A stretch of DNA of 52,987 nucleotides from NCBI GenBank assembly GCA_964509455.1, contig CAZDXS010000125.1:1-52987 (forward strand), read 5' to 3'. The translations under genes were made by a program, and so were the position numbers. Shown in pieces: positions 15,311-27,393 of the stretch. The notes beneath the pieces are model-generated. The model had not been told where the DNA came from, did no database searches, and saw nothing but the letters and a program-made list of their open reading frames with translations. Position 1 is the first letter of the stretch, and the number at the start of each line of letters is the position of its first letter. This stretch comes from an uncultured Enterobacteriaceae bacterium (lineage in GTDB: Bacteria; Pseudomonadota; Gammaproteobacteria; Eutrophobiales; Eutrophobiaceae).

Positions 15311-16030
15311 TCAGCCCGGTTGCCCGGAGAAAAACCCCCTGATTTGGTTGGACATGGCCTTGCAGGCGTTGGCCTGGACCCGGGCCGGCAACGGCACGGG
15401 AATGACCACGGCCGGCATGAACGAGGTGCCGCGCGTCTCGGCGCTGATCCGGCCGGACAGGGCCAGTTCCTTGAAGTCCCAGATGCTGGCCTCGTAGCCG
15501 GCTTCGTCCTGCCAGTAGGCGAAGCCGAAACAGCCGCCCCCGCCGGGACCCACCGCGCAGGCGACGGAGCCCGATGAATCCGTGCGCTCGGTGGCGCCGT
15601 CAATCCACACGAAGTAGCGAATGCCGAACTCGTTGAACTTGCTGATGACGCGCGGGTTCTCCACCAGTTTATGCAACTTCTTGACGTCCATGGGCGCGGT
15701 GCTGGTTTCGAAGTAGGGATACATGCCGTCGACAAAATCCTGCTCCGGAATCACCCGCATCCCGCCCTGTCCCAGGGATTTGCCCACGCAACGGATGAAG
15801 TCGCCCTCGGTCTCATGGCCGGTGCTGTGGCGGCGGCCCAGGACGACAATGGACTCGTCCTGCTCGATGGCGGCCGTGGGCGCCGCACGGAACTCCTCCA
15901 CCACCGTGGCGCTCTTGCAACCCGCCAGCAACGCCAGGCCGCACAGCCACGGGCCCAGGCGCCGGGGTTGCCTGCCGGCAGGTCGGCCCCGGGGCGGCGC
16001 CGCCCGCACGGCGGCGCGAAAGCGATTCAT
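15311..16030 (-). CDS. Lipoprotein, unknown function (last gene of the 15311-27393 operon)
   Basis: Lipobox LLAGC; 'C...GPGGGGCFG' Cys pair; overlaps the upstream gene stop (ATGA). Confidence 0.75.
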   Translation of the reverse strand: MNRFRAAVRAAPPRGRPAGRQPRRLGPWLCGLALLAGCKSATVVEEFRAAPTAAIEQDESIVVLGRRHSTGHETEGDFIRCVGKSLGQGGMRVIPEQDFVDGMYPYFETSTAPMDVKKLHKLVENPRVISKFNEFGIRYFVWIDGATERTDSSGSVACAVGPGGGGCFGFAYWQDEAGYEASIWDFKELALSGRISAETRGTSFMPAVVIPVPLPARVQANACKAMSNQIRGFFSGQPG

Positions 16031-16653
16031 TGCTCTCCCCTGCCGGCCAGCCAGGCCTCAATCTCCGCCACCCGGGAAAAGCCCAGGGCAAACCGGGCGC
16101 CGGCGTCCCGCAGGGCCTGGTTCACCGCCGCGTTCAACCCCTTGGCGCGACTTTTCATGAGGCCGAGCGGCGGCGATTTGCCGTAGCCGGTGACGACCCA
16201 GCGGGCAATGTTCACGCCGTCCGGGTCATGCAACGCCAGTTCGTACTTGATCCAGGCTTCGTAAAAATCCAGGCCGGTTTCCGCCGGCAGGGCAAACTGC
16301 ATTTCCACAATGGTCGGCATCAACACGGCGTCCACCGGCACGGCGGCAGGGACGGCGGCAACCTCGGTGACCTCCTGGAACATGGCGGGCAGGACCTGCT
16401 CAAACACGGCCGCGTGGGACGCGCCGCTGTCGATCTTCCAGTTGGGCCGCTCCTCGCTGTCTTCCTCGTAGGCGTAGTTGCGCAAGTCGTCGCCATACAC
16501 CACGCCCAGGCTCAGCGGCAGGCGCGTCACCAGGGGAACGGGTATGGCGCTGTCCACCTTGAGGGACATGGAGCGCTCGCAGGCCGCCAGGAGCAATGCC
16601 GGCAAGGCCGCGGCGCATATCAGCCGCTTGTTCATCGTCATCATCTTCGTCAT
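16027..16653 (-). CDS. Lipoprotein, unknown function
   Basis: Lipobox LLAAC; beta-rich body 'YEAWIKYEL...W...GYGK'. Confidence 0.75.
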   Translation of the reverse strand: MTKMMTMNKRLICAAALPALLLAACERSMSLKVDSAIPVPLVTRLPLSLGVVYGDDLRNYAYEEDSEERPNWKIDSGASHAAVFEQVLPAMFQEVTEVAAVPAAVPVDAVLMPTIVEMQFALPAETGLDFYEAWIKYELALHDPDGVNIARWVVTGYGKSPPLGLMKSRAKGLNAAVNQALRDAGARFALGFSRVAEIEAWLAGRGEQ

Positions 16654-16737
16654 TCTTCACGGCGGCGGCGCGCGGCCTCTGCCGGGCAACGGCCCGCCGC
16701 CCGCCAATTATAGCCCGCGGCGCGGCGCCGCGGCGGT

Positions 16738-25101: not shown

Positions 25102-26302
25102 CGCCTGCGGCTGACCCGGTTTCCATTTCGTGCAATTCTTTCAGGATTCGGCGCCACTGGTCATACTGCTCGTTGACCGTGCCCGACAGGGTGACGGTCT
25201 GGTCCTCCAGTTCTATGGAATGGGGTTCTATCTCCGAGTTGAGAGAAGCGGAAATCTCCTCTAAGGCTTCGGCGTGAATCTTGGCTTCTTCCCGTTTTTG
25301 CAGGCCGCTGCGAATGGCCATCGCACCGGCGCCTATGCCCACCACGCCCGCGGTGCGGGCAGTGCGGCTGTCAATCCCCTGGGCCAGGACCCCGGCCAGC
25401 ACCGCCAGGGCGCCGCCGACTACCCGCGAGTTCGCTTCCGCCCGCAATTCTTTCAATGCCTGGCTTTCCAGGTAAAACGCCTCGCGCCACTCCAGGTAAG
25501 GCGCCTCCATGCGGTCGACGAACGAGGCGTAGTACTCTTGCATGGTGTCGACGAACACGTGGTCCCGCTCGCGAATGCGGCGCACTTGTTGCAGGTTGGG
25601 ATCGTTGGCGGCCGGCAGGCGCTTGATGCGGTAACGCCCCCTGCCGTCCGCCTCCAGGTGGTCGTGAAACACCTCGGGGGAAAAATCCCTGGCAAATTTC
25701 AACTCGGCAATGGTGCGTATGGTCTCGATTTCGGCGGCGCTGAACTGGCTGCGATACGCCGCCATGTCGCCGGCGATCTGGTCATACAACTTCTGAAACG
25801 GCTCGGCGCCGCCGGCCGTGTCGGGGTCAAAGGAATACTTGCCCGCCACGCCCGTGTATTTTTTGCTGAACCAGCGTTTTCCCGCGGCGTCCTCCACGGT
25901 TACCCGCAACCAGAGATTCTCCCCGTCCGACTTCAGGATTTCGGCATCGACCCAGACGTCCATTTCGCTCACCCGGTCTGGTATGACCCGCACCACGCCC
26001 CAGTTGCCGGAGCGTTGCAGGGTCTCCACCAGTTTCACCGGCATGAAGCGGGCTTCTGCTGCGCGGATTGCGGGGAAAACGCCGTCCTCGTCATCGCTGA
26101 TGGCGTCAACGCCCGGGTTGAAAATGCCGACCCCCACGTCCAGCAACAGGGCTTCCGGAATCGGCTCGGTATTCGTGGAAACCCGCTCGTAGCTGGTCGT
26201 TTTTACCGTGGTCGTGTTGCAACCGGCCGCGATGAAACACAGTACGGCGATGATTGCGCCGGAGCGCACTGGTCTTGGCGTCATTTTCTGTCTTGGCCTC
26301 AT
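25091..26302 (-). CDS. Lipoprotein with glycine-zipper-like segment, unknown function
   Basis: Lipobox IAAGC; GGALAVLAGVLA...AGVVGIGAGA; overlaps both neighbours. Confidence 0.8.
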   Translation of the reverse strand: MRPRQKMTPRPVRSGAIIAVLCFIAAGCNTTTVKTTSYERVSTNTEPIPEALLLDVGVGIFNPGVDAISDDEDGVFPAIRAAEARFMPVKLVETLQRSGNWGVVRVIPDRVSEMDVWVDAEILKSDGENLWLRVTVEDAAGKRWFSKKYTGVAGKYSFDPDTAGGAEPFQKLYDQIAGDMAAYRSQFSAAEIETIRTIAELKFARDFSPEVFHDHLEADGRGRYRIKRLPAANDPNLQQVRRIRERDHVFVDTMQEYYASFVDRMEAPYLEWREAFYLESQALKELRAEANSRVVGGALAVLAGVLAQGIDSRTARTAGVVGIGAGAMAIRSGLQKREEAKIHAEALEEISASLNSEIEPHSIELEDQTVTLSGTVNEQYDQWRRILKELHEMETGSAAGDGA

Positions 26303-27393
26303 TTTAAGTCACGTTTGTATTTACGGTATTCTTCCCAGAGTTTTTCCCGCAGGGCGGGATCTTGTTCTTTCAGGGCGGCCTCGCGCAACTGCCGGGCAAT
26401 AATATCATCTCCCTCGGCGTCGGCAAGATCGGGGGGCGTCTGGGGAGTGCTTTGAGGATTCCCGCTGGACGGGACAGGTGCGTTGCGGCGCCCGCCGCCG
26501 GGGTTGCTTTCAGCCGGTGCGGTTTTCAGCGGCTCTTTCTCGTCGTCCAAGTTGCCGCGGTAGCCGCCCTGGTTGACTTTCCCCGCAATGGCGTCGCGCT
26601 CGCCCAACATGGCGCGATCAAATTCCGCCAGCCCCTCGTTCAGTTTTTTCTCCAGGGCCGCTTTTTCCTCGGCGTTGCCGGCAGCCGCAGTCCCCGAATC
26701 ACCGGCGCCTTTATCCAGCGCTTCCAGCGCCGCGGCCAGGATTTCATCTTCGGTTCGGTCGTTACCGGTTGCTCCGCCGCCGGGTTGCCCCGCAACGCCG
26801 TCCGGACTACTGCCCGTCCCCTGGACGTCGCCTGCGTCAGCCTTTTGTTCGTTGCCGGTTGCTCCGCCGCCGGACCGTCCCGCAACGCCGCCCGGACTAC
26901 TGCCCGTCCCAGATGCGTTTTCTGCGCCGCCCGCTTGGCCGTTGCCTGCTTCCCCGTCGCCGCCGGGTTGCCCCGCAACGCCGGCCGGGCTGCCGTCCGT
27001 CTCAGGGGCATTTTCTGCGCCGGCCGCTTGGCCGCTGTCTGCTTCCTCGGCGCCGGCGGCGGAAGAATCTGCCGGAGCGCCGGCGCCTTTATCCAGCGCC
27101 TCCAGTGCCGCGGCCAGGATTTCATCTTCGCTCTTGCCGGCACCGGATTGATTGCCGGCGCCGCCCGATCCCGGGGCGTCGCCTGCGTCAGCCTTTTGTC
27201 CGTTGCCCGCCGCTTCGCCGCCGGGCACGCCCGTTGTACTGCCGCCGGGAACGCCCGCCGGATGGCCGCCGGGAACGCCCGCGGCATCTGTTGAACGCAC
27301 GGGAGATGTGGTATTGCAAGCGGCGGCGAACATCGCCAGCGCGGCGACCACCGCGCCGCGCAATGCCGCGCCTGCTGTGTTTCTGCTGTTCAT
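26299..27393 (-). CDS. Lipoprotein with long repeat-expanded Gly/Ala/acidic disordered region and helical C-terminal domain (first gene of the operon)
   Basis: Lipobox FAAAC; EDEILAAALEALDKGAG occurs twice; C-terminus DDIIARQLREAA..E.DP.LRE.LWEEYRKYK. ATG 27393. Confidence 0.75.
   Translation of the reverse strand: MNSRNTAGAALRGAVVAALAMFAAACNTTSPVRSTDAAGVPGGHPAGVPGGSTTGVPGGEAAGNGQKADAGDAPGSGGAGNQSGAGKSEDEILAAALEALDKGAGAPADSSAAGAEEADSGQAAGAENAPETDGSPAGVAGQPGGDGEAGNGQAGGAENASGTGSSPGGVAGRSGGGATGNEQKADAGDVQGTGSSPDGVAGQPGGGATGNDRTEDEILAAALEALDKGAGDSGTAAAGNAEEKAALEKKLNEGLAEFDRAMLGERDAIAGKVNQGGYRGNLDDEKEPLKTAPAESNPGGGRRNAPVPSSGNPQSTPQTPPDLADAEGDDIIARQLREAALKEQDPALREKLWEEYRKYKRDLK
26705..27290. repeat. 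Intragenic in-frame repeats (90-bp units, a ~47-bp block repeated 378 bp apart, 24-bp units)
   Basis: 26761-26820 is near-identical to 26851-26910. The GCGCCTTTATCCAGCGC...CATCTTCG block occurs at ~26705 and ~27083. GCCGCCGGG(C/A)ACGCCCG occurs three times at ~27217-27281. Confidence 0.85.

Follow-up and report, generated by a model that had tools for sequence, protein, structure and literature searches.

The stretch of DNA analysed here, which we call the window, comprises the 52,987 nucleotides of contig CAZDXS010000125.1 (GenBank assembly GCA_964509455.1), from an uncultured Enterobacteriaceae bacterium. On its minus strand lies an operon of 11 co-oriented genes that spans positions 15311-27393 and is transcribed in the order G01 to G11 (Table 1). 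The operon encodes a membrane channel of the family of MotA, TolQ and ExbB, two proteins in which a transmembrane aspartate is combined with a domain of the von Willebrand factor A type (VWA), and a set of envelope scaffolds and lipoproteins; taken together, these probably constitute an ion motor that works on the cell envelope. An earlier reading of the same DNA, made from its letters without database searches (the sequence-only reading), had described the closely packed genes, the channel, the twin Asp-bearing coiled-coil VWA proteins, a protein of actin/Hsp70 fold with an FHA domain, the PEGA-FGE and TPR scaffolds and the four lipoproteins. The coordinates that it gave are correct, and these assignments were recovered by the profile, fold and motif searches reported below, the FHA domain as an FHA-like one.

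Successive genes of the operon share 4-30 nt or are separated by 1-10 nt, the sole exception being the junction between G09 and G10, where the gap of 84 nt corresponds to the "~85 nt" of the earlier reading. The TATAAT hexamer reported upstream of the operon is indeed present, though without an acceptable -35 hexamer, and a consensus promoter scan did not list it; the promoter and terminator scan also revealed no convincing minus-strand terminator after G11. A search for sequencing runs over positions 17000-24000 listed none of RNA. Pfam and NCBIfam searches matched no TonB, TolA, OmpA or TonB-dependent-receptor family in any of the 11 proteins, as the sequence-only reading had claimed, and assigned no family to G01, G02, G07, G09, G10 or G11.

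Table 1. Features of the operon in the window, in order of transcription
Feature	Positions	Strand	Description
TATAAT hexamer	27434-27439	-	Read directly; 41 nt before the G01 ATG; possible -10 element
G01	26299-27393	-	Lipoprotein, a long part of it of low complexity
G02	25091-26302	-	Lipoprotein of 403 amino acids; LptE/PelC/FlgT/DUF330-like head
G03	23455-25101	-	Single-pass membrane protein; periplasmic TPR; beta-rich C-terminal segment
G04	21363-23426	-	N-terminal transmembrane anchor, four PEGA domains and an FGE-fold domain
G05	21003-21353	-	Small secreted or anchored protein: signal peptide, disordered linker, near-invariant C-terminal motif
G06	20198-20995	-	MotA/TolQ/ExbB-family channel, 265 amino acids, GTG start
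G07	18808-20187	-	Cytoplasmic; Hsp70 nucleotide-binding-domain fold and C-terminal FHA-like domain; predicted accessory
G08	17727-18806	-	Transmembrane Asp helix (SFLDI), coiled coil of ~86 residues, VWA domain with DxSxS MIDAS motif, C-terminal DWP
G09	16738-17730	-	Paralogue of G08: transmembrane Asp helix (SFLDV), coiled coil, VWA domain with DxSxS
G10	16027-16653	-	Small lipoprotein; predicted accessory
G11	15311-16030	-	Small lipoprotein; four conserved Cys besides the lipobox Cys; predicted accessory

The identity of the channel is clear. G06 matches the Pfam family MotA_ExbB (PF01618) with 52.5 bits against a cut-off of 22.9 (E 5e-14), and a genome-wide profile scan, in which G06 again exceeded the MotA_ExbB cut-off, found six matches to this family and three to ExbD. 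None of these three ExbD-family matches is on the contig of the window; each of the three ExbD/TolR genes adjoins another ExbB/TolQ gene of the genome, not G06. Hence, G06 is a MotA/TolQ/ExbB channel without an ExbD/TolR partner. Conserved threonines in the last two transmembrane helices of MotA/TolQ/ExbB proteins line the ion path, and T189 and T222 of G06, which are invariant across 13 members of its family, align with the corresponding threonines of the TolQ and the three ExbB proteins of the same genome. G06 is 26% identical to that TolQ, and within the alignment of these paralogues the residues P182, G185, G188, T189, G192, A218 and T222 are all invariant. The channel has at least 7998 homologues, the best 120 of which are 68-95% identical to it and mostly exactly 265 amino acids long. 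In the anti-phage defence collection PADLOC, no family matched G06 at E<=0.01.

In the place where ExbD or TolR would be expected, the operon encodes the two VWA proteins. Neither G08 nor G09 gave an ExbD match in Pfam or NCBIfam, and a VWA domain stands where the periplasmic domain of ExbD/TolR would lie. G08 matches Pfam VWA_2 with 32.3 bits (cut-off 27, E 1.7e-7). G09 has no Pfam VWA match; comparison of profiles shows it to be a paralogue of G08 along the full length, from the transmembrane helix through the coiled coil to the VWA domain (hhalign 99.6%, E 9e-25, 262 columns). Profile searches of the PDB with both proteins returned mostly coiled-coil proteins, and for G09 the only hint of a VWA domain was integrin alpha-M (E 0.44). 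Both N-termini consist of a basic stretch followed by FS[LI]SFLD[IV]xxCGFG and then a hydrophobic run, which places the aspartate at the same depth as in the ExbD/TolR helices of the genome (TPLIDVVF, VPYIDVML). Among the complete orthologues in the 80 related loci described below, the SFLD[IV] motif was found in 74 of 74 G08 and in 70 of 71 G09 sequences, and the metal-site motif DxSxSM in all of them (74/74 and 71/71), so that both VWA heads are predicted to carry intact metal-ion-dependent adhesion sites (MIDAS). The very end of G08 (17727-17735 in the window) is an invariant D-W-P, present in 31 of 31 sequences.

Prediction of the complex supports a heterodimer of G08 and G09. The full-length proteins, each with its own alignment, gave a score of 0.82 in all three runs, against 0.00 for the best of three controls; among benchmark pairs, 58 of 80 solved complexes and 2 of 110 mismatched pairs score as high, counts that, because alignments made for this analysis were used, calibrate the result only roughly. 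The runs shared at least 68% of their contacts, and the partner pLDDT was at least 77. The confident contacts, which link residues 47-132 of G08 to residues 45-136 of G09, are spaced by 3-4 residues in a heptad pattern, and this spacing indicates that the modeled coiled coil is parallel and in register. In the model, the contacts run on as far as the heads: there the two conserved C-termini meet (G08 348-359 with G09 322-330), and the DWP tail of G08 lies against the conserved C-terminal strand of G09. With a helical rise of 0.148 nm per residue, the stalk of ~86 residues is calculated to be ~13 nm long.

The sequence-only reading had made co-conservation of the genes its own test, and the operon passed it. 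A pattern scan of species-representative genomes yielded 583 confirmed stretches, and the best 80 of these 583 were analysed as loci. By their record titles they are gammaproteobacterial, two odd labels apart, from Microbulbifer, Halioxenophilus, Exilibacterium, Marinibactrum, Porticoccus, Thalassomonas, Colwellia, the Woeseiaceae and many metagenome-assembled genomes (MAGs). All ten large genes are present in 37 of the 47 loci with full 10-kb flanks, and in 36 they have the same order and strand; co-conservation of the operon is far beyond chance. By tblastn, the number of loci (of 80) with a match was 61 for G01, 60 for G02, 70 for G03, 78 for G04, 9 for G05, 80 for G06, 77 for G07, 75 for G08, 75 for G09, 62 for G10 and 60 for G11, and most of the misses fall at contig ends. 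The departures from the common plan are few: five loci (L021, L022, L025, L068 and L072) are without G10 and G11, another (L051) has these two genes elsewhere in the locus on the other strand, and five (L010, L013, L043, L072 and L078) are without one or more of G01-G03 by tblastn. L005 contains insertions of ~3.5 kb between G04 and G05 (L005:6211-9694) and of ~1.4 kb between G06 and G07 (10798-12200), which indicates that the operon tolerates interruption at these points. The two odd labels, a Saprospiraceae MAG (L023) and a Phenylobacterium MAG (L064), belong to loci in which the operon has its gammaproteobacterial form, with a channel 59-64% identical; mis-binned contigs or gene transfer are possible explanations.

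More distant relatives indicate which of the genes are dispensable. Six further loci (L081-L086) were compared, all from genomes sampled across the phylum that carry a G08 homologue. The closer two (L083 and L084) have all eleven genes. The other four (L081, L082, L085 and L086) keep G01-G04, G06, G08 and G09 together with a miniature G05, with the tblastn match to G01 missing in L082, and in none of the four did G07, G10 or G11 find a match; nor do these distant loci have any further flanking open reading frame in common. Since G07, G10 and G11 are unmatched there, the minimal system would consist of eight genes (G01-G06, G08 and G09), and the other three are, to judge from these comparisons, accessory. 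The earlier view of the eleven genes as one unit therefore stands for the closer relatives, in which they are co-conserved, and not for the four distant loci, in which these three are missing.

The motor genes are accompanied by two putative scaffolds anchored in the inner membrane. G04 consists of a transmembrane segment without a lipobox, four stretches that match Pfam PEGA (7e-52) and a domain that matches FGE-sulfatase (8e-42). In the PDB, the latter domain matches human FGE at about 1e-18 to 2e-20 and the PorK chains at 3e-17. A pair of cysteines in a CxxxxC segment of human FGE is catalytic; in the alignment a Ser and a Thr of G04 face these two residues, and no cysteine occupies either column in 71 of 71 sequences (the window and 70 of 78 orthologues, those shorter than 650 amino acids or with stops having been dropped). 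The FGE fold of G04 is thus predicted to be non-catalytic. The match to the GldK equivalog (TIGR03525) reaches 110.4 bits, below the cut-off of 350, and G04 does not have the lipoprotein anchor of PorK/GldK. The second scaffold, G03, matches TPR_2 (7e-12), TPR_19 and other Pfam models. A PEGA-like end of G03 was not confirmed, as Pfam gave no match in its last 88 residues. This tail, the tail of G01 and the whole of G05 and G10 are without a credible Pfam family.

Four of the proteins are lipoproteins by their lipoboxes, which were found in 55 of 60 orthologues of G02, 53 of 59 of G10, 52 of 59 of G11 and 37 of 61 of G01, where uncertain start sites bear on the count. The sorting rule of Escherichia coli lipoproteins concerns an aspartate at position +2; no orthologue with a lipobox has one, which suggests that G01, G02, G10 and G11 are located in the outer membrane. 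G01 (lipobox AAAC in the window) varies in length from ~145 to 400 amino acids across orthologues. Most of it is a Gly/Ala/Pro-rich, acidic region of low complexity with internal repeats, and the last ~45 residues, a helical motif, are alone conserved (46-82% identity by tblastn). At the DNA level, the low-complexity part (26665-27233) consists of ~90-nt direct repeats in 3-4 copies and a 378-nt duplication.

G02 matches no Pfam family and nothing in the PDB by sequence. Its AlphaFold2 model (pLDDT 80.3) comprises an alpha/beta head, a helical hairpin (helices 235-307 and 314-355, with a Gly-rich tip of low confidence) and a small C-terminal domain. The comparison of the lipoproteins with known folds that the sequence-only reading had proposed was run on this protein, and the matches of its head were weak but consistent, with target TM-scores of up to 0.58: XCC0632/DUF330 (E 5e-5), an LPHT-ring chain, FlgT, LptE, CT253, PelC, CsgG, GNA1162 and the N-domain of TolB. 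G10 may be related to the head domain of G02 (hhalign 74%, E 2.8e-5, 156 columns). A kinship of G11 with either G02 or G10 was also considered and found unconvincing (45% and 29%, the former on the signal peptides only). An Atlas look-up gave, as leads only, Lipoprotein_16 (34% of a cluster) or a DUF4136-like family for G10, and CsgG (19%), GNA1162 and CT253 lipoproteins for G11. In the latter, C81, C158, C167 and C223 are invariant in 26 sequences, in addition to the cysteine of the lipobox, and none of these 26 orthologues revealed a shared Pfam family at E<=0.05.

The conservation of G05 was easily overlooked: tblastn misses it in most loci because the protein is mostly of low complexity. 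A motif search found F.P[ST]E.ISED..V.FP.DI, followed directly by the stop codon, in 78 of the 80 loci, L012 and L061 being the exceptions. The motif lies 2-198 nt upstream of the channel gene or, as in L077, extends up to 3 nt into the start of that gene. In the four distant loci, G05 is a mini-protein of ~35-55 residues, made up of a hydrophobic helix and a short tail that ends in ...SFPVDI, ...TFPVDI or ...DFPVNI; this form indicates that only the extreme C-terminus is conserved. As so small a protein cannot reach far from the inner membrane, its C-terminus would dock close to the motor, on the periplasmic side, or else where the scaffolds have their base.

G07 is the one predicted cytoplasmic partner. 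Its AlphaFold2 model (pLDDT 89.5) matches the nucleotide-binding domains of Hsp70 proteins over the first ~335 residues (Foldseek E 6e-16, query TM-score 0.57, target TM-score up to 0.72). The last ~90 residues, compared as a family profile with the PDB, match the FHA domains of EssC (4.7e-4), KIF13B (1.6e-3) and CHFR (0.02). The Pfam HSP70 model itself has no match in G07. The segments aligned to the phosphate loops of Hsp70 read ELND and HLDLHLH and are without Gly runs. In the alignment of 31 rows from which the model was built (the window and 30 of the 80 loci, picked for spread), the FHA-like part has only four conserved columns, H371, A378, G440 and D441; it looks canonical in two members (L051 and L068). 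The phosphate-loop segments and the scarcity of conserved FHA columns make both a nucleotide-related and a phospho-threonine-binding activity of G07 doubtful.

The core of the system has already been predicted in print. A computational study (PMC12204202; Mol Biol Evol 2025) describes a second family of membrane-tethered vWA proteins that tightly co-occurs with tolQ homologues. These "TPH-vWA" proteins, found mainly in Proteobacteria and Verrucomicrobia, are without tolR/exbD, form mostly heterologous pairs and have a conserved aspartate; in AlphaFold 3 models, the pair of aspartates lies within the Thr ring of a TolQ-like pentamer (PMC12204202). By that description, whose exemplar is from Idiomarina, the core of the window has every stated feature: a transmembrane-vWA pair of heterologous proteins beside a tolQ-like gene, the membrane aspartate, the missing tolR/exbD and a proteobacterial host. 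The sequence-only reading, which had called the system uncharacterised, is thus weakened as regards the three-gene core. It stands in so far as the study is purely computational, states no function and, in the text examined, makes no mention of the other eight genes, that is, of lipoproteins, TPR protein, PEGA-FGE protein, mini-protein or Hsp70/FHA protein. A full-text search of a literature library returned PMC12204202 as the only description of this architecture and found no experimental paper there. What is new here is the eight-gene minimal set, the model of the G08-G09 pair, the tail of G05, the FGE domain without its cysteines and the head of G02.

Comparison with better known machines shows both kinship and distance. 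With TolQRA-Pal and ExbBD-TonB the operon shares a homologous channel and small subunits with a transmembrane aspartate at the same depth. Its TPR and lipoprotein partners are reminiscent of CpoB and Pal. Unlike those systems, it has neither an ExbD/TolR fold nor a separate TolA/TonB transducer; domains of TolB, Pal or OmpA are likewise missing, as is a TonB-dependent receptor, and its axle, if the model is right, would itself span the periplasm as a coiled coil that ends in VWA heads. The core of type IX secretion and gliding (GldLM/PorLM with the PorK-PorN ring) likewise joins a periplasm-spanning dimer to a membrane motor, and the FGE fold of G04 matches PorK and is without Cys at both CxxxxC columns. 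In contrast to that core, G04 is anchored by a transmembrane helix, has four PEGA domains and is no lipoprotein (GldK model 110 bits against 350), equivalents of PorN, Sov and PorV were not seen, and the motor protein belongs to the MotA/ExbB family. In the Agl-Glt machinery of Myxococcus, TolR-like proteins are the small subunits and a surface adhesin, distinct from them, is the VWA protein, whereas in the operon the VWA domains are fused to the Asp helices and there are no barrel proteins. The likeness to Agl-Glt, a focal-adhesion machine treated in PMC11761067, would lie, as the sequence-only reading indicated, in a motor of TolQ/TolR type accompanied by TPR and VWA components. Finally, the MotAB stator and ZorAB of Zorya share the presumed 5:2 architecture with an aspartate in the membrane part of the central dimer, in contrast to which the operon has no peptidoglycan-binding domain, no long ZorA tail and no PADLOC match to G06.

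We consider it rather probable that the operon encodes a 5:2-type ion motor in which G08 and G09 form a coiled-coil axle whose MIDAS heads act on a periplasmic and outer-membrane assembly. A pentamer of G06 would surround the two Asp-bearing helices of the heterodimer, and the parallel stalk with its two heads would serve as the central axle in place of ExbD, TolR or MotB. The flow of ions, most likely protons, through the Asp/Thr site would turn or pull the stalk relative to the pentamer, and the heads would thereby perform mechanical work on an assembly composed of the anchored scaffolds G03 (TPR) and G04 (four PEGA domains and the FGE fold) and the lipoproteins G01 and G02. To this, G10 and G11 would have been added in the clade of the window; G05 would dock its invariant C-terminus close to the inner membrane and G07 would be a clade-specific cytoplasmic accessory. 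Such a machine would reach from the cytoplasm to the outer membrane. As to its job, our guess is a force transduction comparable to that of Tol-Pal, for maintenance or remodeling of the outer envelope, which we think likelier than secretion or motility.

Several observations weigh against such a motor. The transmembrane helices of G08 and G09 (about residues 10-33) are not among the confident contacts of the dimer model. Long coiled coils can pair promiscuously, which leaves a preference of G08 for G09 over homodimers putative. In one locus (L054), a Ser replaces the membrane aspartate of G09. In another (L061), a gene for a channel 62% identical to G06 stands by itself, as the 10 kb to each side contain none of the remaining ten genes; the system may have been rearranged or split there, or the assembly may be at fault. 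The distribution is patchy, as a G08 homologue was found in 19 of 401 genomes sampled across the phylum (including that of the window), 15 of the 19 belonging to one family of another class. In addition, Pfam and NCBIfam revealed no peptidoglycan-binding domain, outer-membrane beta-barrel or cargo gene in the operon.

The same parts can be assembled into other machines, which we take in declining order of probability. One is a machine for surface motility or adhesion, like Agl-Glt or the gliding apparatus of the Bacteroidota, in which the VWA heads, or else an adhesin, would be carried along the envelope by the motor. The intact MIDAS motifs of the VWA domains and the TPR and FGE-fold (GldK/GldJ-like) parts would suit it, and a gliding-type role has been suggested for the first vWA family of PMC12204202. 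Yet the heads are held on an inner-membrane tether of ~13 nm and have no export signal besides the transmembrane helix, the conserved unit is without an outer-membrane barrel or surface adhesin gene, and both the GldK and the GldJ models score far below their cut-offs. Several of the carriers, for example Microbulbifer, are moreover described as non-motile; on this balance, we regard a motility machine as unlikely. An export system of type IX character, with a 5:2 motor and a periplasm-spanning dimer that drive a ring of FGE-fold protein and lipoproteins under the outer membrane, appears to us quite unlikely. It gains from the FGE domain of G04, which matches PorK (3e-17) as well as true FGEs (1e-18) and has no Cys at the CxxxxC columns, and from the weak resemblance of the G02 head to the ring-forming PelC, CsgG and FlgT; it loses from an eight-gene unit that contains neither a translocon-like or barrel protein nor a cargo with a recognisable sorting domain, from the transmembrane anchor of a G04 that is no lipoprotein, and from a G06 that belongs to the MotA/ExbB family.

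The FHA-like domain of G07 raises the alternative that the core is a trans-envelope sensor, which, instead of performing work, would report the state of the envelope to the cytoplasm through FHA/phospho-threonine partners. This is improbable: G07 is missing from the distant lineages that keep the rest, Pfam and NCBIfam find no kinase or phosphatase in the operon, the four FHA-like columns conserved in 31 sequences leave phospho-threonine binding in doubt, and the Asp/Thr path for ions shows the conservation seen in motors that work. Anti-phage defence of the Zorya type, with a MotAB-like complex that senses perturbation of the envelope, is very improbable indeed. A MotA-family protein with unusual partners is in its favour, as are the weak matches to ZorA tails that PADLOC gave for the coiled coil of G08 (E 0.002-0.01), but beyond this coiled-coil noise (G08 and G09) no PADLOC family matched any operon protein at E<=0.01, Pfam and NCBIfam revealed neither a nuclease nor a helicase nor any further effector among the proteins of the operon, and the stable gene order, with G06 at 60-75% identity across many genera, is unlike that of defence islands.

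Few jobs of 5:2 ion motors are known: they rotate flagella, drive TonB-dependent uptake, maintain the envelope with Tol-Pal, power type IX secretion and gliding, and take part in Zorya defence. The ion motor proposed here would use the same channel with another axle, and it is very widespread, as the number of channel homologues (at least 7998) attests. The channel travels with a fixed set of envelope proteins that fits no described system. A bolder version of this proposal, which is possible and which we put forward only tentatively, is that the operon represents a fourth working class of 5:2 motor, in which the axle, as a heterodimeric shaft of coiled coil with two MIDAS heads, is itself the transducer. 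It would pull or turn an assembly of G02 with G01, G10 and G11 that is held by the PEGA-FGE and TPR scaffolds, with the FPVDI-COOH tail of G05 plugging the motor, or serving as its clutch, at the mouth on the periplasmic side; the eight genes would then be a self-contained machine for some process with which no motor has so far been connected, such as the positioning or remodeling of outer-membrane lipoproteins. As there are cultured marine bacteria among the carriers, the function can be tested directly, and it would show what else bacteria power across the periplasm with a proton gradient.

The surroundings of the operon in the window are of mixed character. Downstream, on the same strand, lie genes of an F1Fo ATP synthase (a subunit, alpha, gamma and beta; 6503-12731, minus strand). 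Upstream, on the plus strand, are surface-polysaccharide genes (28806-33162) for a family-2 glycosyltransferase, a Wzy_C/O-antigen-ligase-like protein and a polysaccharide flippase. The flanking ATP synthase, redoxin, glycosyltransferase, Wzy-like and flippase genes were considered as parts of the operon and rejected, each being found beside it in 0 of the 80 loci. Between the operon and the polysaccharide genes, a divergent gene at 27753-28553 (plus strand) encodes a secreted metallopeptidase of the M48 family (Pfam 8e-14). In 10 of the 80 related loci, a homologue of this peptidase adjoins the operon, either upstream or downstream of it, and the peptidase may be a loosely linked partner.

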